Assembly (NCBI GenBank): GCA_964557415.1
Contig: CAZLBB010000007.1
Location: 9,064-73,063 of the forward strand
Origin: an uncultured Rhodospirillaceae bacterium
GTDB taxonomy: Bacteria; Pseudomonadota; Alphaproteobacteria; JAEULC01
Length of the DNA: 64,000 bases
Direction: 5' to 3'
Position 1 is the first letter of the stretch. Each line of letters starts with the position of its first letter. Made by a program: the position numbers and the translations under genes. Below are positions 15,090 through 28,693 of this stretch, in pieces. Under the pieces are notes generated by a model, which was not told the DNA's origin, searched no databases, and saw only the letters and a program-made list of their open reading frames with translations.

Positions 15090-15383
15090 ATGGTGCCGGG
15101 TTTGCGGCGTCGCCGGCGAATGCCGCCGCCGCCGCCCTTGTCTTCGACCGCAATGGCTTTCCGGCCGACGACGCCATTGCCCGGCGAACATGGACGCTGT
15201 GCAGCGTCTTGCCGCGCGGAACCGCCGTCGCGAACGGGGCGAAACGGCCAGCGCGCCGGCTCACGCCGCTCCGCCGTGCTGCGGCGCCACGCGCCCAGGC
15301 GGGGCGGTTCCTTGCGTTGCCGGCATAGACCGTCTAAGTGTTATGTGCAGATCGGCAGGGCGCATTTCGAGGCATTGCCGAGC

Positions 15384-16313
15384 ATGGAGACGCGGGCCCT
15401 CCGCTATTTCCAGGCCGTGGCGGAATTCGGCAGCTACAGCCGCGGGTCGGAATTTCTGCGCATCTCCCAGCCCGCCGTCAGCCGCCAGATCCGCAGGCTC
15501 GAGGAAGAACTGGGCAGTGCGCTGTTCGAGCGCCATGGCCAGGGCGTCAGCCTGACCGAATCAGGCCGCATCCTGCTGGCGCGCAGCCAGACGGTGCTGC
15601 GGCAACTGGAGCAGACGAAGGCCGAGATCCGCACGGGCAAGGCCGGGCCGTCCGGCACGATTTCGTTCGCCGTACCCCCGGCGGCCGGCAATTTCCTGGT
15701 GCCCGAGCTGGTCCGGCGCTTCGGCGCCGAGTATCCCAACGTCTTCCTGCGCATCGTCGCCGGGTTCAGCGGGCATATCCACGAATGGCTGGTGCGCGGC
15801 CAGGTCGACCTGGCTTGCGCGCACGATCCGTTGCCGCAACGCGGCTTCGAGATCACGCCGCTGATCAGCGAGGAAATCTTTCTCGCCGGCAAGCCGGGGA
15901 CGATGCCGCCCCGCCGGACCAACGTGAGCATAGAGGACCTGGCCGACCTGCCGCTGATTCTCCCCAGCCGGCCGAATGCTTCGCGCCGGCTGCTCGACAG
16001 TTGGGTCGCGCAGCATAAGACCTCGCTCCACGTGAAGATCGAGGTCGACGATCACTCCGTGATTCGCGCGCTGGTGCGGCAGGGCGAGGGCTTCACCTTG
16101 CTGACGCGCGCCGCGATCGACGCCGAGCTGTCGCGCGGCGAGGTGCAGGTCCTGCCGTTCCGCCCGCGCGCGACCTGGACGCTGGCGCTGATCACGTCGT
16201 CGGACGCCGCGCGCTCGGACATCGTGACGATCTTGGCGCGCACGGTGCGCAGCGTGGCGCGCGAGCTTACCGCCTCGGGCGCTTGGCCCGGCCGGTCGCT
16301 CGATCAACGCTGA
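15384..16313 (+). CDS. LysR-family transcriptional regulator
   Basis: N-terminal HTH (LRYFQAVAEFGSYSRGSEFLRISQPAVSRQIRRLEEELG) plus a LysR substrate-binding domain. The ORF-track entry 15090..16313 is an upstream over-extension. Confidence 0.85.
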   Translation: METRALRYFQAVAEFGSYSRGSEFLRISQPAVSRQIRRLEEELGSALFERHGQGVSLTESGRILLARSQTVLRQLEQTKAEIRTGKAGPSGTISFAVPPAAGNFLVPELVRRFGAEYPNVFLRIVAGFSGHIHEWLVRGQVDLACAHDPLPQRGFEITPLISEEIFLAGKPGTMPPRRTNVSIEDLADLPLILPSRPNASRRLLDSWVAQHKTSLHVKIEVDDHSVIRALVRQGEGFTLLTRAAIDAELSRGEVQVLPFRPRATWTLALITSSDAARSDIVTILARTVRSVARELTASGAWPGRSLDQR

Positions 16314-16332
16314 CGGCGCACCGCCGCCGCCC

Positions 16333-17544
16333 TCACTCGACGACGATGATATCCCGCGAGTGGCGCGAAATGCGCTCCGCGCCGTTCTCGGTCACCAGAA
16401 CGGTGTCGGTGATGCGCGCGCCCAGGCGCTCCTCGCCGATGAAGATCGGCGGCACGACGGAGAAAACCATGCCGGCCCGCAGCGTGTACCTGCTGCCGCC
16501 GAAGATGTGGATCGGCTCGCCCCAATAGGGCGGAAAACCGGGCGCGACGCCATAGGCCGTGGTGTGGCAGCGATAGCGGTCGAAGCCGGCCTCGGCGATG
16601 ACGCGCTTGGCTGCCTCGTGCGGCACCGTTGCGGCGACGCCGGGGCGCATCGCCGCGATGCAGGCGTCGCCCGCGCGGCGGACGACCTCGTGCAGCTCCA
16701 GCATCCGCGCGACCGGCTTTCCCAGGCAGAACATGCGCCCGATGGTCGCGGTATAGCGCTTGTAGGCGGCGCCGAACTCGACGTTGCCGGCCTCGCCGCG
16801 CCCGAGGCGCCGCGAGGTGGGAGAACCGTGCGAGAAGCCCAGACGGTCGCCGGTCACGAGGTTGATCGCGCTCGCCGGCAGTCCGCCGCCCGCGCTAAGC
16901 ATGGCGTGATAGACCGCGCCGGCGATCTCGAGTTCGCTGCGGCCTTCCGCGATCGACCGGACGCAGGCGTCCATGCCCAGATCGGCGATGCGCCCGGCCT
17001 CGCGAACCAGCGCGATCTCGCGCGCGGACTTCACCATCTTCAGGTCGTGCACCAGGTTGTCCGGTTCGGCTACCAGCGCCGCGCCCAGCATATCCTTGAT
17101 GCGTACGTAGTGCCGGGGGTGCAGGTAGTAGGCGGGAACTTCCATGCCGACGCGCCGGTGGCGCAGACCCAGCGAATCGACCAGCCGGCCGAACGCGGCC
17201 ATCGGGTCATCCGGCTCCCCGCCGCCCCAGATGCGCAGGTCCTCGACCAGCGAATCCTGCAGCATCTCGTTGCGCTCGGCGTCCCGCGTGAGCATCACCA
17301 GGGGCTTCGCATCGGCGGCCACCAGCAGGCACTGGAAGGATTGGAAGCTCTTCGCGTCCGTCCCGATCAGCCAGTGCATCGACACGGGATGGAACACGAG
17401 AAGCCAGTCGAGCTTGGCGTCGGCGATGGCGCGGCGCAGCCGCGCCAGGCGCGCGGCGAATTCCTCCGCCGGAAAGTCATGCTTGGACAATCGGGCTCCC
17501 CCGTGTTCCCCCGGCGCAAAGCCTAGCACGACCGGCGCGCACAA
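16333..17544 (-). CDS. M24-family metallopeptidase (Xaa-Pro dipeptidase/creatinase-like)
   Basis: Creatinase-N-like N-terminal domain plus the pita-bread M24 catalytic domain (HGSPTSRRLGRGEAGNVEFGAAYKRYTATIGRM ... ERISR). The likely true start is the TTG at 17490, preceded by GGGGGAG (spacer 5). Confidence 0.8.
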   Translation of the reverse strand: MCAPVVLGFAPGEHGGARLSKHDFPAEEFAARLARLRRAIADAKLDWLLVFHPVSMHWLIGTDAKSFQSFQCLLVAADAKPLVMLTRDAERNEMLQDSLVEDLRIWGGGEPDDPMAAFGRLVDSLGLRHRRVGMEVPAYYLHPRHYVRIKDMLGAALVAEPDNLVHDLKMVKSAREIALVREAGRIADLGMDACVRSIAEGRSELEIAGAVYHAMLSAGGGLPASAINLVTGDRLGFSHGSPTSRRLGRGEAGNVEFGAAYKRYTATIGRMFCLGKPVARMLELHEVVRRAGDACIAAMRPGVAATVPHEAAKRVIAEAGFDRYRCHTTAYGVAPGFPPYWGEPIHIFGGSRYTLRAGMVFSVVPPIFIGEERLGARITDTVLVTENGAERISRHSRDIIVVE

Positions 17545-17661
17545 CGACGGCCCGACGAACGGGATTGCGCTGCCGAAGCGCCGCGTGAGAGCGGGAAAAA
17601 AAGAAAGGCGACGTTCTCCGGCGGACCGCGCCGCCGGAGAACGTCGCGCGCGATTCGTGCG

Positions 17662-19119
17662 CTATTCAGCGGCTTTCATCTGCGATTTGCCGCGCTTGGC
17701 CTGCAGCGCCCGCAATTCCTGCGCCAGGCGCAGTCCGCGCGGAGTGCCGCCTTCCTCGAAGAAGCGGATGATCTTGTCGGCATAGACGCCGGTGCGCGCC
17801 TCCTCGACGGCCGGGATCATCTCCGTGCGCAGCTTGTCGTAGGCCCACAGATCCGACCGCGACAGGTTGATGCGGATCGCGGTGCCTGCGCCGACGTCGC
17901 CCAGTCCGTCGCCGGCATAGAGCGCCACCTTCCGCTTGAACAGCGCCACGCAGATTTCCTGCGCCGTTGCCCCCGTCTTGGAAATGTCGAGGACCATGGA
18001 GAACCCGTACTTCGGCATCACCGGGATGGTCACTTCGCATCCCTTGGAGCGCCACATCTTTTCCGATTCGACCACGTGGGCGAGGTTGCGCCGCATGGCC
18101 GCCTCGGCCGATTGCAGGTACTCCTTGTCCTTGAGCGCGGCGATCGCCCCGTACTGGGCCAGCAGGTTGGTGTGGATCTTGGTGATCTCCATTTTCATCA
18201 TCGCCGCCGCCTTGAGCAGGTCGGGATGGCCGGCGAGGAAGCCCAGGCGCAGCGCCGCCATGCCGTAGCCCTTCGACATGCCGGAGGTGGAGATCACGTT
18301 CGACGTGTCGATCTCCTTGTGCAGCGCGGCGATCGGATACTGGCGCGTCTTCGGATCGAGCTGGTGGGTGTTGTGGGTGATGTTGTTGAAGACGAGGAGA
18401 TTGTGGTCGTTGGCGAGCTTCACGATCTCGAGCAGCTCTTGCTTGCTCTGCGTCGTCCCGTACGGGTTGATGGGATCGCAGATCACGATCATCTTCGTGC
18501 GCAGGTTGATGTGCTTCCTGATCTCCTCGGGCTTCAGCCGGTAGTCGTTCTGGGGCCCGAGGGGGATCTGGACCGGAGTCGCCCCCGCCATCAGCGCCGC
18601 CGGCGCGAAGTGGAAGTATACCGGATCCGGCATGATCACCTCGTCACCCGGATCGAGATAGGTGAGGTAGGTATAGCCGATGCCGCCCTGGGCGCCTTCG
18701 ACGCCGATGACCTCGAAATCGTCGCCGCGTTCCCGGCCGAACTTGGTGACCGCTGCCAGGTCGCGCAGTTCGGAGAGCAGGTCGGGCGGATAGGGGCCGA
18801 CATTCTCGGCCACGCAGCGCCGCTTCATTTCCTCGATCGCGCTCGCCGGCGGGCCGATGTAGGAGCACATCCACCCGAGATCCGACCATTCGGCGGGATC
18901 GAGGTCGATGCGGCCGCCCTTGTAGACCGCGGTGTGGTCCCAGCCGAGCACGTCGATCGCCTCGCGGTAGGTGAAGTAGTTGCCCATCCCCTGCGGGTGA
19001 TAGAACAGCGGCTTTGCCCGGTGCGAGATGTGCCGCTGCATCTTCAGGCTGATGAGCTTGCCGTCGGTCTGGTAGGTACGCCCCCACGACATGATGAAGC
19101 GCGGTTTTGCCTTGGCCAT
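17662..19119 (-). CDS. PLP-dependent aminotransferase, class I/II fold, with an unusual ~110-aa N-terminal extension
   Basis: Aminotransferase fold motifs (IMPDPVYFHF ... PINPYGT ... STSGMSKGYGMAALRLGF). The start ATG at 19119 is preceded by GGAGG (spacer 7). Slightly lower GC3 than its neighbours. Confidence 0.75.
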   Translation of the reverse strand: MAKAKPRFIMSWGRTYQTDGKLISLKMQRHISHRAKPLFYHPQGMGNYFTYREAIDVLGWDHTAVYKGGRIDLDPAEWSDLGWMCSYIGPPASAIEEMKRRCVAENVGPYPPDLLSELRDLAAVTKFGRERGDDFEVIGVEGAQGGIGYTYLTYLDPGDEVIMPDPVYFHFAPAALMAGATPVQIPLGPQNDYRLKPEEIRKHINLRTKMIVICDPINPYGTTQSKQELLEIVKLANDHNLLVFNNITHNTHQLDPKTRQYPIAALHKEIDTSNVISTSGMSKGYGMAALRLGFLAGHPDLLKAAAMMKMEITKIHTNLLAQYGAIAALKDKEYLQSAEAAMRRNLAHVVESEKMWRSKGCEVTIPVMPKYGFSMVLDISKTGATAQEICVALFKRKVALYAGDGLGDVGAGTAIRINLSRSDLWAYDKLRTEMIPAVEEARTGVYADKIIRFFEEGGTPRGLRLAQELRALQAKRGKSQMKAAE

Positions 19120-19343
19120 TTGCTGACCTCCATGGACGGTGGTGTTGCTGGGCGGGACCGGGCGGAGCCTCGCAAGCGAGATTCGCGCCGCCTCTTTTCC
19201 TGCCCAATGCGCGAACGGTAGGAACGCGTTCAACCGCAGTCCAATGCATAATGCTGTATGATCTTTATGCCGCATCGGCATGGCGGGATCCTGCGGGCAT
19301 CGCATTCGGCGCAGCTGCGGGAAGGTTCCCGCCCGCGAGCGGC

Positions 19344-19439
19344 CTGTTGAACAAGGCGGCGGAGAAGCTTGAGCTCAGCGCGCGCGGCGATCACCGGGTG
19401 ATGCGCATGGCTTGCGCGACGGCCTGTCTCGCCGGCGCC
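19344..19439 (+). pseudogene. Internal fragment (~32 codons) homologous to the comM 3-prime region. It is truncated at both ends.
   Basis: Seen directly in the sequence. 19344-19439 aligns codon-for-codon to comM 14930-15025: LLNKAAEKLELSARGDHRVMRMACATACLAGA versus LLNTAAEKLKLSARGYHRVMRVARTLADLDGA. Many of the differences are synonymous. Confidence 0.6.
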
Positions 19440-19461
19440 CCCGCTTGCCGGCGCGGGCGAA

Positions 19462-19566
19462 CGCGTTGTGCATGAAGTGGGTGCGGCAGCGCCGCCAGGA
19501 CGCATGCAGCACCTTGGTCACAGCCGCATTCAGCTCCTCATGCGCGTCCGAGACGACCAGCTTCAT
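19462..19566 (-). mobile_element. Relic of an IS256-family (Mutator-type) transposase gene, a ~35-aa internal piece
   Basis: The translation KLVVSDAHEELNAAVTKVLHASWRRCRTHFMHNA matches the conserved IS256 transposase block (V[IV]SDAHEGLK ... WQRCxVHFxRN). Only about 105 bp remain and no inverted repeats were recognised. Confidence 0.5.
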
Positions 19567-19623
19567 GCAAGCAGGCGCTGTCGCGGCGGCGGCAAACGGC
19601 GGACCGGAAGGGCCGGCGCTGGC

Positions 19624-20910
19624 TCATTGCGGCGCGCGATACGCGGCCCGGCACAGGCGCACGGGCTGGCTGCGCCCGCGCACGGGCTGCGGCGGCAGCT
19701 CGATCCATTCCACGCCGGGCAGCTCCCCGGCCGCGTCGGCGGCCTCGCGCGAGACCAGCAGGTCCACGTCGTTCTCGCGCGTCAGCCGCTCGATTCGCTC
19801 GGCGGTGTTCACCGTGTCGCCGATGACGGTGTACTCCAGCCGCCGCGGGTGGCCGATCACGCCGGCCATGACCTGGCCGTAATGGATACCGATGCCGATG
19901 CCGATCGGCTCATCGCCGCGGGCGGCGCGCTCGCGGTTCCATTGCTCGATCTCGTGGAGCAGGCCGAACGCGGCGAGAATCGCCATGCGGGCGTCGTTGG
20001 CGCCGGTGGGAGGCGCGCCGAACACCGCCATCACGGAATCGCCCATGAACTTGTCCAGCGTGCCGCGGCGTTCGAAGACGGCGTGGGCGCAGCGCGACCG
20101 GAACTCGTTGAGGAACGCCGCGACCGCCTCCGGCTCCTTGCGCTCGGACATGGCGGTGAAGCCGCGGATGTCGGCGAACAGGACGGCCGCCGTCAGGCGC
20201 TGCGGCCGCTCGATCGCCGCCGCCCCTTCGTAGCTCAGCGACGCGACGAGGTTGGGCGGCAGGAAGGGGGCGAGGTTCGCGCGCATGCGGCTGACGACGA
20301 TGTTCGACAGGCGCAACTGGTGCTTGCGCGCGACCACGAAGGCGAGCGCCGCGGCCGTGAGCGCGACGATCGCCATGCGTACCGCGACGCCGTGCGCCGG
20401 GCCGTGCAGCGGCCCGCCGCTCAGCTCGCCCGCGGCCAGATCTTCCGGCTGCAGCCAATCAAGCATGGCGAAGACCGCAAACCAGCCGCCGATGAAAAGC
20501 CCCGCCGTGTAGACGACCAGCCCGGGGTGGTAGCGGATCGCGGCATGGGCCAGGAACAGGAAGATCAGCCCGGCGATCGGCAGCGCGAGCGTCTCGGTGA
20601 ACGGAACGTGCCCCGCCTGCGCGATCATGGTCAGCAGCGTGAGGAGCAGCAGCACGTCGCATGTCGCCAGCGCCCAGGCCACCCAGACGGGGGGGATATC
20701 GATCCGGCCGCGGCGCGTGACCCAGAAATCGGCCGCGGTCACGATGCCGTAGCCGACCAGGATCGGAATGCCGTGGTGCGCCGGCCCGTGGTGCTGCACG
20801 CTGAGCAGGACGACCGCCAGCCCGAGGAAGCTGAGCAGCCGGATGGTCGCCGAGGCGCGCTCGCTGCGGCGTTCCGATTCCAGGATCACGCGGCGGATAT
20901 GGGTCCTCAT
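19624..20910 (-). CDS. Membrane-anchored class III adenylate/guanylate cyclase
   Basis: N-terminal multi-TM region plus a C-terminal CYC domain (LFADIRGFTAMSE ... FMGDSVMAVFGAP ... IGIGIHYGQVMAGVIG ... GDTVNTAERIE). Start chosen at Met 20910 (MRTHIRR); the ORF-track start at 21036 is an alternative. Confidence 0.8.
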   Translation of the reverse strand: MRTHIRRVILESERRSERASATIRLLSFLGLAVVLLSVQHHGPAHHGIPILVGYGIVTAADFWVTRRGRIDIPPVWVAWALATCDVLLLLTLLTMIAQAGHVPFTETLALPIAGLIFLFLAHAAIRYHPGLVVYTAGLFIGGWFAVFAMLDWLQPEDLAAGELSGGPLHGPAHGVAVRMAIVALTAAALAFVVARKHQLRLSNIVVSRMRANLAPFLPPNLVASLSYEGAAAIERPQRLTAAVLFADIRGFTAMSERKEPEAVAAFLNEFRSRCAHAVFERRGTLDKFMGDSVMAVFGAPPTGANDARMAILAAFGLLHEIEQWNRERAARGDEPIGIGIGIHYGQVMAGVIGHPRRLEYTVIGDTVNTAERIERLTRENDVDLLVSREAADAAGELPGVEWIELPPQPVRGRSQPVRLCRAAYRAPQ

Positions 20911-21947: not shown

Positions 21948-22538
21948 CTATTTTGCCACGACCTGCTTCCACGCCGCTTCCCAGTCCTTCGGCAGCTTGT
22001 GTGCGATTCCCTGGTGGCAGTCGATGCAGGTCATTCCCTTCTCGCGCGCTTCGGCGTGCCTGCGCTGCGCCGGGCGCACCTGCTTTTCCTTGTCCATGAA
22101 CTCGAAAGCGTGGCAGTTGCGGCATTCGCGCGAGTCGGTCGACCTCATTGCCGTCCACACGGACTTGGCCAGCTCGGTACGGGCTGTCTCGAACTTCTCG
22201 GGCGTGCCCACGGTGCCGACGATCTTGTGGTACAGCTCGTTCGTGGCGCGAACCTTGCGCACCACCTTGTGGACCCATTCCTTCGGCACGTGACAGTCGG
22301 AGCAGACGGCGCGCACGCCGGTGCGATTGCTGAAATGCGGCGTGGTCTTTATTTCGGCGTACACGTTGTCGCGCATCTCGTGGCACGAGATGCAGAAGGC
22401 TTCGGTGTTCGACAGCTCCATCGCCCAGTTGAAGCCGCCCCAGAACACGATGCCGGCGGCGAACGACGCCAGCACGAATCCGGCCAGCAGCCATCCGCCG
22501 CGCGGTGCGCCCAGCCATTTGCAAATGCGCTTGAACAT
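21948..22538 (-). CDS. NapC/NirT/CymA-family membrane-anchored tetrahaem cytochrome c (quinol dehydrogenase)
   Basis: N-terminal TM helix plus four CxxCH motifs (CISCH, CSDCH, CRNCH, CIDCH) in the characteristic NapC/NirT spacing. Confidence 0.85.
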   Translation of the reverse strand: MFKRICKWLGAPRGGWLLAGFVLASFAAGIVFWGGFNWAMELSNTEAFCISCHEMRDNVYAEIKTTPHFSNRTGVRAVCSDCHVPKEWVHKVVRKVRATNELYHKIVGTVGTPEKFETARTELAKSVWTAMRSTDSRECRNCHAFEFMDKEKQVRPAQRRHAEAREKGMTCIDCHQGIAHKLPKDWEAAWKQVVAK

Positions 22539-22661
22539 GCTGCCGGTTCCTTTTCTGGGATGTTCGCCTGCCGGACCAGATCCCCGGCAATCGAATCATC
22601 GCGGCGATGTTGATGGCGCCCGGCCGAGTGTCTAATCGGCCGGGCGCCGGCGAGGGAGGGG

Positions 22662-23981
22662 CTAGTTGAGGGTCACCGCCTTGATAGTGGCGTCCGCGCC
22701 GATCCCGAGGCTCAACGGGAACGAGACGAAATGGTAGCGCGTGGTGACGTTGTCGTCGTGCACCGCGATGCCGATCGTGTACACGCCGCCAACCTTCATG
22801 ATCTTGTCGTCCGCCGGATTGCCGGTATCCAGCTTGCGCCGCCACAACAGCGTGTAGGCGCCGTCCTTCCACATTCCCTTCGCGTAGTCGTTGTCGGCGG
22901 CCGATCCCTTGGCGTCGGCGCGGCTGATCAGGCGGCCGGGAAGGATGTCGCCCTCCTTCCACCCCGCGTTCGGGTCGAAGGGCGCGGCGTTCTCCTCGCG
23001 CACGACCGCCGCCGGCTTGGCGGCGTTGCCGATGTCCTCGGCGCGCAACGCCTTGAAGCCCGTCTTGGCGGAATCGAACATGTATTTCGGCAGTTTGGTC
23101 TTGCCGTCGATGTTGGAAGCGAACGGATTGGCGCCGGCATCGAACAAACGGAATTCCAGCACGTAGCCGTCGTCGGCCATGCCGACGGGGTTGCTGCGCG
23201 CGGTCCGCCACTGCATGAGGTCGAGGAACTGGCCGGCGGCCTTCAGCTTGGCGATCTCCTCGGCCGATTTCGGCTTGTCCCAGCTCGCCTCCGGATCCGA
23301 GCGCGTGATGGCGAGATACTTGAGGACCTCGTCCTTCTTCATGCCGGCGTCGCCCAGGAAGGGATGCTTCTTGACGGCATCCTTGCCCGCCATCTTCGGC
23401 GCGTCGCGCATGCCGTTGTGGCAGGTCAGCCAGCAGCCCTGCTGGGCGAAGCGCTCGACCTTGCCGTCGTCGAGCATGATCGCGACGCGGTCCTCGTAGA
23501 GCGGTGGCTCGGCACCCGAGCGCACCTTCTCGTGAGAGCGATAGCTGCCGTACGACTTCCACTCCTTGCCGTCGAAGCGCACGTAGTCGTGCATGCGCCC
23601 CTCGCGGTTCATCTGGGATTTCCACTGCATGCGGAAATAGACGAACTCCTTGTCGTGCGCCGCCTGCACCGACAGCGGGAGCGTGCCGTTCTTGCCGGCG
23701 ATCGGCGTCGGCTCCAGCGGGCCGCCCTTCACCAGCTTGTTGCCGATGTCCGCCTCGTCGCCCTCGTGACAGGACAGACACGCCTTGCCTTGCGCGACCT
23801 GCTTGTCGCCCTTCTTGTGGTCGGGGCTCAGCAGCCAGTCATAGGTCGATTGTCCGGGGTAGAACAGCGTGATCGACTTGGCGGGGATCTTCGACCAGTC
23901 GATGGTCGCCGGATCGGCGGCCAGCGCGGGCCCACCCATCAGCGCAACGGCGCCCAAGAGAGCAGCCGTTTTGTTCCTCAT
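22662..23981 (-). CDS. Periplasmic dihaem c-type cytochrome of unassigned family (439 aa)
   Basis: Sec signal peptide (AVALMGGPALAADP). Exactly two CxxCH motifs (CLSCH near residue 68, CWLTCH near residue 193) and no other Cys. Sits 123 bp upstream of the NapC/NirT gene on the same strand. Confidence 0.7.
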   Translation of the reverse strand: MRNKTAALLGAVALMGGPALAADPATIDWSKIPAKSITLFYPGQSTYDWLLSPDHKKGDKQVAQGKACLSCHEGDEADIGNKLVKGGPLEPTPIAGKNGTLPLSVQAAHDKEFVYFRMQWKSQMNREGRMHDYVRFDGKEWKSYGSYRSHEKVRSGAEPPLYEDRVAIMLDDGKVERFAQQGCWLTCHNGMRDAPKMAGKDAVKKHPFLGDAGMKKDEVLKYLAITRSDPEASWDKPKSAEEIAKLKAAGQFLDLMQWRTARSNPVGMADDGYVLEFRLFDAGANPFASNIDGKTKLPKYMFDSAKTGFKALRAEDIGNAAKPAAVVREENAAPFDPNAGWKEGDILPGRLISRADAKGSAADNDYAKGMWKDGAYTLLWRRKLDTGNPADDKIMKVGGVYTIGIAVHDDNVTTRYHFVSFPLSLGIGADATIKAVTLN

Positions 23982-24627: not shown

Positions 24628-25605
24628 CTAGATCTTGTCCCTCAATCGCTCGATCAGCGTGCGGTACAGCTCCTTGTCCGCGCCCGTCGCGGCGTCGAAG
24701 CGGTCGGTCAGCTCCTTCAGCGTCATGCCGATGTTGAGCGCGTCGCCGGGCGGGCGCGGCGAGGGCCTTGCGGTCTGTACGGTCTCGATGCCGACCTTGG
24801 GCAGGATGGCGTTGATGACGCGCTCGATCGTCTGGAACAGGAAGTCGGTGCTGTAGCCGGCCAGGAAGCCGAGCGCGGCGGCGCTGAGCTGGATCGTCTC
24901 GCCGCCCTCCGTCGTGATCTGGTTTACGAACAGCGTGATCGTGCCGCCCGCCACCGCGCCCAACAGGATGCGGTTCATGTATTCGGACTTGCGCCGCACG
25001 TCGAAGGTCCGCGCATGCAGATTGGTGTGCGCATTGCGCAGCAGGTAGACGCAGGCACCGAGACCGCCATACGAGAACGGCAGCAGCAGTTCGACAAGTT
25101 GCAGCCACGTGTTGATCCGATCGATCTCGCCATCCAGGATCGGCCCGTAGCGACGCTGCATCCAGCCGGCAAAGACGATGAACGCAGCGAAGCCGATGGT
25201 CGCCATGAACAGCCCGCGCGCGAAACGCTGCGCCGGCGCCAGGCCGTCGGAAAACCAGTCTGCGGGCGAGAACCAGCGGATCGTGATGCCGGCGGCGGCG
25301 GTCGCACGCAGCGTATCGGCGGTGACGGGATGCAGCAGTGCCGCCAGCTGATGATACGCCATCTGGAACTTGATCCAGTCCCCGGGCCCGTTCCTCAGCG
25401 CCTCGCCTGCCGGGGTCTTGTCGAGCGTGGCGGCCGTCGTCTTGATCGTCGTCATGATGTCCGAGGAAACCGTCAGGCCCTCGGCGGTCTTGAAACCGCT
25501 CTCGACGGCGTAGGTAAGCAGCTCGAGCGCGTCCTTCGCTTCCTTGCGATAGACACGCTCGGCTTCGCTTGGACTCGGCGCATCGGGCGGGAGCGGATCG
25601 CTCAT
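24628..25605 (-). CDS. Hypothetical membrane protein: an N-terminal soluble ~120 aa, 4 predicted TM helices, then a C-terminal soluble ~60 aa
   Basis: The start ATG at 25605 overlaps the stop of the upstream nuclease gene (ATGA) and is preceded by AAGGAGG (spacer ~5). The upstream part of the ORF-track entry 24628..26031 is Arg/Gly-rich read-through. Confidence 0.6.
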   Translation of the reverse strand: MSDPLPPDAPSPSEAERVYRKEAKDALELLTYAVESGFKTAEGLTVSSDIMTTIKTTAATLDKTPAGEALRNGPGDWIKFQMAYHQLAALLHPVTADTLRATAAAGITIRWFSPADWFSDGLAPAQRFARGLFMATIGFAAFIVFAGWMQRRYGPILDGEIDRINTWLQLVELLLPFSYGGLGACVYLLRNAHTNLHARTFDVRRKSEYMNRILLGAVAGGTITLFVNQITTEGGETIQLSAAALGFLAGYSTDFLFQTIERVINAILPKVGIETVQTARPSPRPPGDALNIGMTLKELTDRFDAATGADKELYRTLIERLRDKI

Positions 25606-26741
25606 AGTCCCTCCTTCGCGAACTTCTTGCAGCCCTGGTCGTAGTCGGCCGGCGCGACGGGCCAGGCCGCCGTCGCGACGCGCTTCTTCAGATTGGCGGT
25701 GTCGCCGCCGGCGTCGGTGAAGAAGCGCTGGCCCGTCAGATGCTCGATGCGCGCCACCGAGGCCAGCCAGGCCGACGGCCGGAACGGGCCCTTGCGGTAG
25801 CTCGGGTGGTCCTGCGGGTAGACGAAGGCGAGCGCGTCCCACGCGCCCGTTTCGTCCTTGCGCGCGACGATCTTGAACAGGGCGTCGGGGATGGCGACCT
25901 TGAGCGCCTTGCGTCCGGGCTCGCGCAGCCAATGCGTCGGCCGTCCTTGCAGGAAGACCGGCCCGCTGACGACCCAGATGCTGCCGTGCCGGTTCGCGAG
26001 CGCGCCGGTATAGCACTCGAGCTTGAGCCACGGCCCGCTGTTGAAGCGGCTGCGCTGCGGCACGGCGTTGCCCACGTTGTGCGTGAACTTGCCGGCGTCC
26101 GGCCCCAGCCGCTCGGCCAGGAACTTCTGCGCCATGTGGCCGCGGTCGTACCAGTTCGGATGCGCATCGCGGAAGGATTTCGAGAACTTGTAGCTGTCGT
26201 CGGTCGGCGCGATGTTGTTGCGCGCCAGGTCGGGGATCGTGTACCAGGCGCGCGGGCGCGGGCCGCCGCGCGGCTCGCGCGACTTGCGGTCGACGCGCTG
26301 GCTGACCCAGTGCGGCACGGCGAGCACGTCCGGCTTGCCGTCACCGTCGTCGTCGTCGCCCAGGTCGAAATTGACCGCGAAGGCCTGGAAGCAGACGAGC
26401 CGGTCGGTGACCGCGGCCAGGCCCGGATTGTGCTCGCCGCCCTGTTGGTCGGCGCATTCCACGATGCCGACCCGCCGCGCCTCGTCGTCGACCGGCTGCA
26501 TCTCGATGGCGCCGGCGACGACCGCGCAGAACAGCGCGACCGCGCCGATCACTGCCGCGGGCCTGACAAGGCGCGCCGCACGGCCGCTCCGTCGATCGGG
26601 CGGAGAAGCGCCAGGGAATGCCGTCACGCCTCGCTCCCCCAGTTCCCGCCGGCCGCGCCCGAGCCGAGGCGGCGGCACGACGTGATGCGGCCGCAGCTTA
26701 GCACCACACCTGCCGGAGGACACGGCCGAGTTGTGCTGCAA
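25602..26741 (-). CDS. Secreted/membrane-anchored DNA/RNA non-specific endonuclease, Serratia NucA/EndoG (His-Me finger) family
   Basis: Catalytic DRGH motif (NWYDRGHMAQ) and downstream Asn-containing region (FNSGPW). N-terminal hydrophobic signal/anchor (AAVIGAVALFCAVVAGAI) and an acidic linker (DLGDDDDGDG). The exact start is uncertain; 26741 is the most upstream ATG. Confidence 0.75.
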   Translation of the reverse strand: MQHNSAVSSGRCGAKLRPHHVVPPPRLGRGRRELGERGVTAFPGASPPDRRSGRAARLVRPAAVIGAVALFCAVVAGAIEMQPVDDEARRVGIVECADQQGGEHNPGLAAVTDRLVCFQAFAVNFDLGDDDDGDGKPDVLAVPHWVSQRVDRKSREPRGGPRPRAWYTIPDLARNNIAPTDDSYKFSKSFRDAHPNWYDRGHMAQKFLAERLGPDAGKFTHNVGNAVPQRSRFNSGPWLKLECYTGALANRHGSIWVVSGPVFLQGRPTHWLREPGRKALKVAIPDALFKIVARKDETGAWDALAFVYPQDHPSYRKGPFRPSAWLASVARIEHLTGQRFFTDAGGDTANLKKRVATAAWPVAPADYDQGCKKFAKEGL

Positions 26742-26788: not shown

Positions 26789-26995
26789 ATGGCGTTCGTC
26801 AGGCTGACGCGGCCGGGCGGCTCGGCCGTGATCATCAACACCGACCACATCGTCCAATGCGCGCCGGTGCCGGAATCGGGGCCGCTGGCCGGCACGCAGC
26901 CGACGGGCACGCGCGTCGAGTTCGCGAACCGCACGCACCAGGACGTGGTCGAGCTGGTCGACGAGGTCGAGCGCCGGCTGGAGTTGCACGCCTAG
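26789..26995 (+). CDS. Small hypothetical protein (68 aa)
   Basis: The ATG at 26789 is preceded by GGGGAGG (spacer 7). It is divergent from the nuclease operon. Coding-like GC3. No family assigned. Confidence 0.45.
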   Translation: MAFVRLTRPGGSAVIINTDHIVQCAPVPESGPLAGTQPTGTRVEFANRTHQDVVELVDEVERRLELHA

Positions 26996-27029: not shown

Positions 27030-28169
27030 CTATCCGGCCGCGGCAGCCGCGGTTTCGAAGGGGATGGTGCCGGCGCCGCGCGCGGGTCCGGCGATCGCTT
27101 CCTGGCGCTTGAACGCGAGCGCGAAATGGGCGCCGCCGCCGGCGACGGATTCGTAGCGGACGCTGCCGCCGAGCTGCTGGGCAAGGGCCTGCACGATCTG
27201 CATGCCGAAGCCCGCGCCGGAGCGGTCGTCCGTCCCATCCTGGTCCAAAGGCGTCCCGACGCCGTTGTCGACGACGTCCAGCCGCACCTTGCCGCCCTCG
27301 GTCGCGACCGCGATCCGCACCCGGCCGGCGCGCTGGCTGGCGAAGGCGTGCTTCAGCGCGTTGGTGATCGCCTCGTTGGCGATCAGCGCAAGCGGCACCG
27401 ACTGGTCGATCGGCAGCGCCGTGTCGTCGGCCGTCACCTCGATCTCCACCGCGCCCGCGTGCGGGTCGGCCTGCCGCAGGTACTCGACCAGCTTGCGCAT
27501 GTAGTTGCCGGCATTGACGCTGACGATGTTGGTGCTGCCGTACAGCGCCTGGTGCACCAGACTCATCGCATGCACGCGCGCGATGCTGCGCTCGAGGGCG
27601 TCGCGCAGCTGCGCGTCCGCGAACCGGCGCTGCTGCAGCCGCAGCATCGAGGCGACGACCTGCAGGTTGTTCTTCACGCGGTGATGCACCTCCTGCAGCA
27701 GGGCGGTGAGCTGCTGGTTGGCGCGCTCGACCTCTTCCGTGCGCTCGGCCACGCGGCGCTCCAGCTCCTCGTTCATGCGCTGCAGGACCTCGCGGCTCGG
27801 CAGGGACAGGAGCCGCGGCAGGAGCGGCCAGACCAGGATGGCCGTGCCGATCGAGGCGATGCCCGTCGCCAGCTTGACGATCGCCTCCAGCCCGTAGATC
27901 GGATGCCAGAACGAGACGATGTTCAACAGATGCGCGGCGCCGCAGAGCAGGATGAAGGTGCCGAACAGGTAGAGAGGCCAGGTGAACAGCAGGCCGCGCC
28001 GCCGGCGCGCCAGCGTGACCAGGAAGACCGGGATGGTGAAGTAGGCCAGCGCGATGGTGGCGTCGGCGACGACATGGGTCCAGACCAGGTCCGGCCGCCA
28101 CAGCAGGCAGAAGCCGTGCGGCATGAGCTGGTCGGTGCTGAACAGCCACTGCGTGATGGAATCGATCAT
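27030..28169 (-). CDS. Sensor histidine kinase with an HWE/HisKA_2-type dimerisation domain and an N-terminal membrane sensor region
   Basis: About 5 TM helices, then EVHHRVKNNLQVVASMLRLQ (H-box of HisKA_2/HWE kinases) and an ATPase domain ending in a G-rich lid (GAGFGMQIV). Confidence 0.8.
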   Translation of the reverse strand: MIDSITQWLFSTDQLMPHGFCLLWRPDLVWTHVVADATIALAYFTIPVFLVTLARRRRGLLFTWPLYLFGTFILLCGAAHLLNIVSFWHPIYGLEAIVKLATGIASIGTAILVWPLLPRLLSLPSREVLQRMNEELERRVAERTEEVERANQQLTALLQEVHHRVKNNLQVVASMLRLQQRRFADAQLRDALERSIARVHAMSLVHQALYGSTNIVSVNAGNYMRKLVEYLRQADPHAGAVEIEVTADDTALPIDQSVPLALIANEAITNALKHAFASQRAGRVRIAVATEGGKVRLDVVDNGVGTPLDQDGTDDRSGAGFGMQIVQALAQQLGGSVRYESVAGGGAHFALAFKRQEAIAGPARGAGTIPFETAAAAAG

Positions 28170-28240
28170 CGCTGCCCCGCCGTGAGCATGTCGGTCGCAG
28201 GTGTTCGCCGCAGGCCTTCGGCAGCGACGCGAACGCGGCG

Positions 28241-28693
28241 TTATTCCGGGTCGCGGCAGGCGCGCTGGATGGCGCGCTTCAGCCCGTCGATCGAGATCGG
28301 CTTCGGCACCAGGGGCGCCCGGCCGAACTTGCCGATGCGCAGCAGCGTTTCGGGATCGGTATTGCCGGTCACGAACACGATGCGCGCGCCGTGGCGCTCG
28401 CGGATCTGGCGGGCCGCGTCGATCCCATCGCCGTCCGGCAACCGGATGTCCATCAGCGCCACATCGGGCGGCTGCTGGGCGGCCGATCGCAGGGCTTCGC
28501 TGACCGAGGCGACGGGCCCGATCACCGTGCCACCGAACTGCTCCACGATCGACGCGAGGTCGAGGGCGACCAGGCCTTCATCCTCCACCACCAGGACGCG
28601 CAGCTCGCGCCCGTCGGCGCGGCTGAGCCTGTCGCTAAGCTCGGCCTTCATCGTGGATCCGCCCTGGTCGACCGGCGACGCGGCTTGCGGCAT
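28241..28693 (-). CDS. Single-domain response regulator (receiver only)
   Basis: REC fold motifs (VLVVEDEGLVALDL ... DVALMDIRLPDGDG ... IVFVTG ... KPI). Lies immediately downstream of the kinase. Start at 28693, with GGGAG 5 nt upstream. Confidence 0.8.
   Translation of the reverse strand: MPQAASPVDQGGSTMKAELSDRLSRADGRELRVLVVEDEGLVALDLASIVEQFGGTVIGPVASVSEALRSAAQQPPDVALMDIRLPDGDGIDAARQIRERHGARIVFVTGNTDPETLLRIGKFGRAPLVPKPISIDGLKRAIQRACRDPE

Follow-up and report, generated by a model that had tools for sequence, protein, structure and literature searches.

What does a membrane protein contribute when its gene starts inside the last codons of a gene for an exported nuclease? The question is raised by a locus within a 64,000-nucleotide stretch of DNA from an uncultured Rhodospirillaceae bacterium (the window, to which all coordinates refer), where a NucA-type endonuclease and a 325-amino-acid membrane protein, here called the partner, form a two-gene operon that is translationally coupled through an ATGA overlap. 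Both genes lie on the minus strand.

25602..26627, minus strand: nuclease gene, 341 amino acids from the GTG start at 26627 (open reading frame list, sequence and Pfam family PF01223)
24628..25605, minus strand: partner gene, 325 amino acids (open reading frame list and sequence)

Judged from its sequence, the nuclease itself is a routine member of a known family. What is new is the partner family and its tie to exported DNases across folds; a conserved membrane companion has not been described for exported nucleases. The comparison of loci given below identifies the membrane protein as the constant element of the arrangement, and a role in the handling of DNA outside the cytoplasm is tentatively favoured for the pair.

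Association of the partner with exported nucleases

The neighbours of the partner were compared across 109 loci, comprising 23 from species-representative genomes, 80 from metagenomes and 6 found by exact protein look-up, and were classified by tblastn together with Pfam and NCBIfam. A locus counted as well flanked if it included at least 1.3 kb of sequence upstream of the partner and 1.5 kb on its downstream side (n = 49); 43 such loci have a nuclease-type gene no more than 1.5 kb from the partner and on its strand. Once partners had been collapsed at 90% identity, an exported-DNase neighbour was found in 36 of the 41 non-redundant loci, so that the pair, whose conservation in other genomes an earlier note on this DNA had named as a point to check, does occur elsewhere. 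Since the pairing recurs in many unrelated contigs, it lies far beyond chance, and chance adjacency is ruled out. The nuclease neighbours at the well-flanked loci belong to four unrelated folds.

DNase II-like neighbour: 26 of the 49 well-flanked loci, two of them also with a Tle1-like gene
NucA neighbour: 10 of the 49
MBL neighbour: 4 of the 49, one also with a patatin gene and one with a ceramidase-like gene
EEP neighbour: 3 of the 49

The NucA gene always lies upstream of the partner, while the DNase II-like gene almost always lies downstream, and at one locus (L030) a single partner gene has NucA upstream and DNase II downstream. The DNase II-like neighbours retain both HxK motifs, and the EEP neighbours weakly resemble the MnuA and ExeM nucleases. 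The MBL neighbours, found with two to four relatives, correspond to a free-standing ComEC/Rec2 C-terminal nuclease domain (TIGR00361, E-value 1e-30). N-terminal signal peptides are predicted on all four nuclease types and on none of the Tle1-like or patatin proteins. Clustering of all neighbours gave no further recurrent component and revealed only lineage-specific synteny, for example an AnmK gene with a GST-like gene in a 15-locus Bradyrhizobium-like clade. Far out in the family, a distant relative of the partner on the 1.85-Mb replicon of Vibrio sp. THAF191d (pTHAF191d_b, PLSDB) follows a protein with two lamin-tail domains.

Viewed from the nuclease, the association is one-sided. Four nucleases on long contigs that are homologous to the one in the window (55, 52, 48 and 45% identity) are all without a partner-family gene within 3 kb, an absence that was confirmed by a family-profile search of six-frame translations. 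Their distance from the window enzyme is no greater than that of the partner-linked nucleases, and no distinguishing feature or insert sets them apart. In a neighbour-joining tree of the partners, the NucA type occupies at least three positions, which indicates that the pairing arose or was exchanged on repeated occasions. Because the partner nearly always adjoins an exported DNase while the DNase can do without the partner, the constant core of the arrangement is the membrane protein, with the nuclease as a payload that can be exchanged. Periplasmic loop 1 of the partner differs between NucA-type and DNase II-type members; co-evolution of this loop with the nuclease was considered as evidence of contact and was dropped, as the type largely follows the phylogeny of the partner.

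Separate observations concern the payloads of particular clades. A large soil clade (L002, L005, L007, L009, L011-L017 and about 45 metagenome loci, e.g., L013:6906-8246) encodes DNase II-like proteins (PF03265) of about 440 amino acids that carry signal peptides and have both HxK motifs intact. Bacterial DNase II has been described as a non-secreted enzyme found in no more than a few genera (PMC5449587); unlike this published picture, exported DNase II-like enzymes prove common in soil bacteria. In a deep-branching clade that contains Sulfuriflexus and others, a conserved predicted lipoprotein of 440-490 amino acids with no Pfam match follows the partner-nuclease operon (L010:8005-9324, L077:3727-5208 and L108:5065-6390) and could be a third component there. 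At L025:5037-8981, a NucA-type pair is followed by two peptidoglycan hydrolases (one Rv2525c-like with SH3, the other with PG_binding_1 and Peptidase_M15_4), and then by genes for three further proteins, namely a DUF3616 protein, a restriction nuclease of the Mrr type and an S1/P1 nuclease. Lytic and nucleolytic genes are unusually concentrated here.

The gene junction and the limits of the operon

The signals that define the two reading frames are the following.

26634..26640, minus strand: ribosome-binding site GGGGGAG of the nuclease gene, 6 nucleotides upstream of its GTG start (direct reading)
25602..25616, minus strand: coupling junction, with AAGGAGG at 25616-25610, the partner ATG at 25605-25603 and the nuclease TGA at 25604-25602

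The longest open reading frame of the nuclease spans 25602..26741 and would give 379 amino acids from a TTG start. However, in L001, an 87%-identical relative, the nuclease begins (MTAIAGASPP...) at the equivalent of GTG 26627, and this position, together with the GGGGGAG Shine-Dalgarno sequence, points to GTG 26627 as the true start in preference to TTG 26741. At the other end of the gene, the nuclease stop codon TGA overlaps the partner start codon ATG by four nucleotides, and the AAGGAGG ribosome-binding site lies four nucleotides upstream of that ATG; both the overlap and the strong ribosome-binding site of the 325-amino-acid partner, on which the earlier note had built, are read directly in the DNA. 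The identical four-nucleotide overlap is present in L001, L003, L004, L024, L025, L026 and L029, which with the window makes eight loci.

Comparison of the window with L001 by blastn yields a single block of homology that runs from about 130 nucleotides upstream of the nuclease start to the partner stop codon, beyond which the homology breaks, to return at the downstream cytochrome genes. As the block ends at the partner stop codon, the operon unit consists of these two genes; a 116-amino-acid open reading frame that follows the partner in L001, a candidate third gene, is not present in the window. The obligate co-expression that the earlier note had drawn from the junction stands for this locus only and does not extend to the nuclease family, as all four of the sampled homologues described above lack the partner.

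Family, fold and topology of the partner

The partner could not be placed in any described family. The window protein has no Pfam or NCBIfam match at E-values up to 1 and none in PADLOC, and a search with 36 family members against Pfam (E-values up to 5) and PHROGs returned nothing significant, the best holin PHROG E-values being 0.09-0.39. These profile searches agree with the earlier assessment that the protein is neither NuiA-like nor a recognisable transporter. Every one of the 252 homologues detected is unnamed or labelled 'hypothetical protein', and the family profile recovers 2367 representative clusters (defined at 50% identity) at E-values up to 1e-3 and 885 at E-values up to 1e-10. 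Members of the family occur mostly in soil Proteobacteria, Planctomycetes and Acidobacteria, with a patchy distribution. Carriers that can be cultured include Rhizobium terrae NAU-18, Bradyrhizobium oligotrophicum, Thalassobaculum fulvum and Desertibaculum subflavum. The longer members, of up to 581 amino acids, contain no recognisable fused domain. No structural relative of the partner model was found in the PDB or BFVD, no relatives were found in 2.9 million viral contigs, and a search of a plasmid collection returned only distant relatives in unannotated records. Literature searches gave no description of the family or of its cross-fold association with DNases. Through its gene order with exported DNases of four unrelated folds, this orphan family of 2367 clusters gains a concrete functional context.

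An alignment-based AlphaFold model of the partner (mean confidence score, pLDDT, 79.9) predicts a helical N-domain, four long transmembrane helices and, at the C-terminus, a helical pair.

25303..25566, minus strand: helical N-domain, residues 14-101, predicted to be cytoplasmic (AlphaFold; conserved motifs in the alignment)
24805..25236, minus strand: four predicted transmembrane helices, residues 124-153, 163-197, 203-227 and 242-267 (model)
24634..24720, minus strand: predicted C-terminal cytoplasmic helical pair, residues 296-324 (model)

The helices of the N-domain (residues 14-36, 48-63, 66-71, 74-91 and 96-101) are modelled mostly with a pLDDT above 90. The C-terminal pair is kept in the NucA-type relatives and varies in many relatives of the DNase II type. 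Conservation across the family peaks in LLRxAH..RTFDxRRKPEYxNR (residues 189-212), a stretch that forms the cytoplasmic ends of the second and third transmembrane helices, and the invariant columns of the alignment are Y179, G180, G181, G183, H193, R199, F201, D202, E208, Y209, R212, G250, Y251 and E261. When positive charges were counted over 36 sequences, the loop between the second and third helices carried 4.9 lysines and arginines, while loops 1 and 3 were short and acidic; these counts put the former loop in the cytoplasm and the acidic loops outside, and therefore both termini of the partner in the cytoplasm. According to the model and the charge counts, then, the partner is a four-helix inner-membrane protein of an undescribed family, with both ends and its most highly conserved residues on the cytoplasmic side, which matches the arrangement of N-domain, four helices and C-terminal domain that had been proposed from the sequence at first sight.

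The nuclease

The Pfam profile Endonuclease_NS (PF01223) matches the nuclease with an E-value of 2.1e-25 and 90.2 bits, against a cut-off of 23, over profile positions 32-218 of 223, and the sequence aligns to the solved structures of EXOG, Serratia nuclease and EndoG (PDB sequence matches). The regions that bear on its activity and its export are the following.

26016..26147, minus strand: catalytic core, with DRGH at 26136-26147 (His164), NAVPQ at 26055-26069 (Asn187), and NSGPW and LKLE at 26016-26042 (Asn196 and Glu204)
26508..26627, minus strand: predicted N-terminal export signal, residues 1-40 (hydropathy scan)

An alignment with 12 homologues shows no variation at R162, G163 and H164 of the DRGH motif, at N187 of NAVPQ, at N196 or at E204, and the catalytic motifs align to the active-site motifs of EXOG. 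The catalytic histidine and asparagine, whose presence on alignment had been set as a test of the nuclease assignment, are thus both in place. In the hydropathy scan, the N-terminus combines a basic n-region, an 18-residue hydrophobic core (AAVIGAVALFCAVVAGAI) and a possible AGA cleavage motif, and the homologues have equivalent hydrophobic N-termini in the alignment; the segment may act either as a cleaved signal or as a membrane anchor. Two cysteine pairs (58/79 and 205/333) are conserved. The acidic run DLGDDDDGDGKPD, noted earlier as an acidic linker, is present in the window nuclease; it is not conserved in its relatives. Taken together, the Pfam match, the invariant active-site residues and the hydrophobic N-terminus are in keeping with the earlier description of an exported, catalytically intact NucA-family enzyme, which is predicted to leave the cytoplasm and is probably a disulfide-bonded, catalytically competent, non-specific DNA/RNA endonuclease of the NucA/EndoG type.

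Proposed role of the pair and alternative mechanisms

We tentatively favour the reading, possible though well short of probable, that the pair is a membrane-coupled module for the processing of DNA outside the cytoplasm, in which the partner couples nuclease activity to the cell interior for the purpose of scavenging or of foreign-DNA exclusion. The nuclease would be exported through Sec and act in the periplasm or at the cell surface, where it would cut DNA outside the cytoplasm; synthesis of the two proteins would be balanced, and they would operate together as a single unit associated with the membrane. The partner, which would tie the cutting to the cell interior, may retain or regulate the nuclease on the periplasmic side of the inner membrane, and a signal or the products of degradation may be relayed by it into the cell. 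Such a unit would likely serve to scavenge environmental DNA or to remove incoming DNA. Both the competence/eDNA-scavenging module and the unrecognised defence or antagonism system that the earlier note had put forward are possible roles. More broadly, the pairing suggests an unrecognised step in the bacterial handling of DNA outside the cytoplasm, be it scavenging, a barrier to foreign DNA or controlled self-destruction.

Several points weigh against this proposal. The partner shows no transporter, channel, enzyme or signalling domain by sequence or by fold. A DNA-specific role does not account for the lipases, ceramidase-like proteins and peptidase found beside the partner: a Tle1-like lipase that lacks a signal peptide is present at about 15 of the 109 loci, patatin or ceramidase-like genes occur at other partner loci, and in Paraburkholderia phymatum the gene for a distant relative comes after one for a sedolisin-type peptidase. 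No hydrolase of any kind adjoins the partner at four to five loci. In the model, the short periplasmic loops would leave little surface for holding a nuclease, and the membrane core is equally conserved whatever the payload, which favours a payload-independent mechanism.

Such indifference of the core to its payload speaks for a second reading, which we consider rather unlikely, in which the partner would permeabilise the inner membrane in a regulated way, on a trigger at its cytoplasmic face, and so mix compartments for suicide or lysis. The DNases would be kept in the DNA-free periplasm and the Tle1-like lipase in the cytoplasm, and opening of the membrane would bring each enzyme to its substrate, destroying the DNA of the infected or damaged cell along with that of any phage, without any need for an immunity protein. 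The payloads are effector-like, comprising nucleases of four folds as well as Tle1-like and patatin proteins, and their predicted sorting fits this scheme, with signal peptides on the DNase II, NucA, EEP and MBL proteins and none on the Tle1-like and patatin proteins. Tle1 lipases of type VI secretion systems are toxic in the periplasm and are not known to be so in any other compartment. A cytoplasmic position is predicted for the conserved hot-spot of the partner, the partner stands alone at some loci, and the patchy distribution across Proteobacteria, Planctomycetes and Acidobacteria points the same way, as does the precedent of an anti-phage effector that acts in the periplasm (PMC13128918). 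Against such a gate, PADLOC-DB 2.0 holds no match for the nuclease, the partner or its distant relatives, nor for the DNase II-like, Tle1-like, patatin, EEP or ceramidase-like payloads, and the MBL payloads gave only generic MBL matches. The defence-island neighbours for which the earlier note had suggested looking did not appear: neither the window nor the 15-locus Bradyrhizobium-like clade has a defence-island or mobile context, and the chromosomal positions of the module are stable, with no recurrence of defence or mobile genes. Relatives are also missing from the viral contigs, no viral fold matches the partner, all holin PHROG matches are non-significant, and nothing indicates that a four-helix protein of this kind opens holes that would pass an enzyme of 35-45 kDa. 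If true, the gate would parallel, in bacteria, the way in which mitochondria release EndoG from their intermembrane space, and the model would be categorically new.

The one-sidedness of the association, in which the partner needs the nuclease and the nuclease does not need the partner, would also be expected of an uptake channel, through which the partner imports the oligonucleotides or single-stranded DNA made by the exported nuclease, in the manner of EndA with ComEC or for the use of DNA as food. The pairing of some relatives with a stand-alone ComEC-type MBL nuclease domain, the conserved glycine-rich and polar positions in the transmembrane helices and the stable chromosomal context agree with import. 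The reading is nevertheless unlikely, as the 36 members searched against Pfam at E-values up to 5 show no likeness to the ComEC competence domain or to any transporter family, and the protein has only four transmembrane helices and lacks a component to energise it. Here too, the neighbouring lipase, ceramidase and peptidase genes would be left unexplained, and the conservation of the transmembrane core irrespective of payload argues for a function that is independent of the chemistry of the products.

The diversity of the cargo, the two peptidoglycan hydrolases after the pair at L025 and the weak, sub-threshold holin PHROG matches could instead suggest a release factor, that is, a holin-like partner that assists the release of hydrolases encoded beside it, in the way of holin/endolysin-dependent (type 10) secretion. 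A comparable case is that of the Serratia NucE and NucD proteins, which are linked to the release of NucA. We regard this as improbable. Most of the cargo already bears a Sec signal and close homologues of the nuclease manage without the partner, which counts against an obligate export factor, a reading that was rejected, and leaves the nuclease-export pair of the earlier note, in the sense of a dedicated export factor, unlikely. Nearly all loci lack a peptidoglycan hydrolase or spanin, and the 325-amino-acid partner, with its 120-residue cytoplasmic domain, is unlike known holins. Membership of the partner in the holins was rejected on its PHROG E-values of 0.09-0.39, on the lack of viral relatives and of a BFVD match, by sequence or by fold, and on the presence of adjacent peptidoglycan hydrolases at one locus only.

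Least of all do we credit an immunity or safeguard function, the nuclease-immunity pair of the earlier note, in which the partner would shield the producing cell against the nuclease, the role of NuiA towards Anabaena NucA. This reading was rejected: an adjacent, translationally coupled gene is the usual toxin-immunity arrangement, but the same partner family stands beside four structurally unrelated nuclease folds and also lipases, the nucleases are exported whereas the conserved surface of the partner faces the cytoplasm, nuclease homologues of up to 55% identity lack it, and it matches neither NuiA nor any other inhibitor family.

Upstream regions and neighbouring genes

A search of Rfam with the window region and 12 loci revealed no riboswitch or other known RNA upstream, and a scan for promoter and terminator consensus sequences was uninformative. 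LexA, Pho and FNR boxes were sought by eye upstream; conserved motifs were seen, none of which matched a named regulator. One motif, of the GGTTGCAG/GGTTGTAG type, lies at 26700-26720 on the minus strand of the window, about 85 nucleotides upstream of the nuclease start, and recurs upstream in several lineages (L005, L037-L039, L042-L044, L054, L057 and L061). The window copy reads GGTTGCAGCACAAC and the copies at other loci read GGTTGTAGTATGCTGTAG or AAGTTGCAGTAGG; in some loci, the motif forms a direct repeat with 11-nucleotide spacing. It is a candidate binding site for a response regulator.

In the Bradyrhizobium-like clade (L011, L066, L070, L071, L079, L085, L094, L097, L099 and L103), about 120 nucleotides upstream of the partner start are strongly conserved and contain a sigma-70-like TGGACT-N17-TATGAT element, followed by a 5' leader with a small hairpin (ACGCCTAAATGGCGAG). 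A TCAAT-N5-ATTGA palindrome is found at the -10 region in the related loci L015, L017, L085, L100 and L106. Rfam gave no match here.

The surroundings of the pair in the window include the following features.

26789-26995, plus strand: 68-amino-acid open reading frame (MAFVRLTRPGGSAVIINTDHIV...), divergent from the nuclease gene, with a GGGGAGG ribosome-binding site and no Pfam match
27030-28693, minus strand: histidine kinase with an ethylene-receptor-like membrane N-domain (ETR1_N, E-value 7e-34), HisKA_2/HWE and HATPase
21948-23981, minus strand: EB_dh (ethylbenzene-dehydrogenase-like haem) periplasmic protein and NapC/NirT tetrahaem cytochrome, downstream of the pair
15090-19631: segment of about 4.5 kb with no counterpart in L001

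The 68-amino-acid reading frame was not seen beside the pair at other loci. The histidine kinase is followed by a single-domain response regulator. The EB_dh and NapC/NirT genes hold the same position in L001 and are separated from the pair by a non-conserved spacer. The 4.5-kb segment interrupts an otherwise collinear comparison with L001, in which the blastn alignment jumps from 19631 to 15090.

Comparison with known systems

Within PF01223, the window nuclease shares the histidine of DRGH, the magnesium-ligand asparagine and the glutamate with Serratia and Anabaena NucA, EndoG and EXOG, and its predicted export signal and its cysteine pairs have their like in the secreted bacterial members. 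Like the NucA-NuiA and other toxin-immunity pairs, the locus sets a nuclease gene beside a small dedicated partner gene; however, NuiA is a soluble inhibitor specific to its nuclease, whereas the present partner is predicted to be a polytopic membrane protein with a cytoplasmic conserved face, and its family accompanies nucleases of four folds.

In the competence of Streptococcus pneumoniae, the entry nuclease EndA works with the ComEC channel. NucM of Moraxella is likewise an entry nuclease (PMC6384898). These systems resemble the present pair in that a membrane-proximal DRGH nuclease deals with extracytoplasmic DNA beside a membrane component, and some relatives of the window partner adjoin a free-standing ComEC-type MBL nuclease domain. 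On the other hand, the window partner has no detectable likeness to the ComEC channel domain, no competence genes lie nearby, and EndA and ComEC are not known to be encoded as a coupled pair. Type 10 secretion and the Serratia nucEDC genes similarly encode a small membrane protein with secreted hydrolases, but the present family shows no significant holin likeness and no phage relatives, is almost never accompanied by an endolysin or spanin, and adjoins cargo that carries Sec signals.

CBASS is a defence system in which a conserved sensor is combined with swappable effectors. The HXS system illustrates that incoming phage DNA can be countered by an effector in the periplasm (PMC13128918). The present loci differ from both: they match nothing in PADLOC, have neither a known sensor nor a signalling domain, lie in no defence island and mostly encode payloads that are exported rather than cytoplasmic; what they share with CBASS-type systems is a conserved core that is joined to interchangeable nuclease, lipase or MBL payloads.

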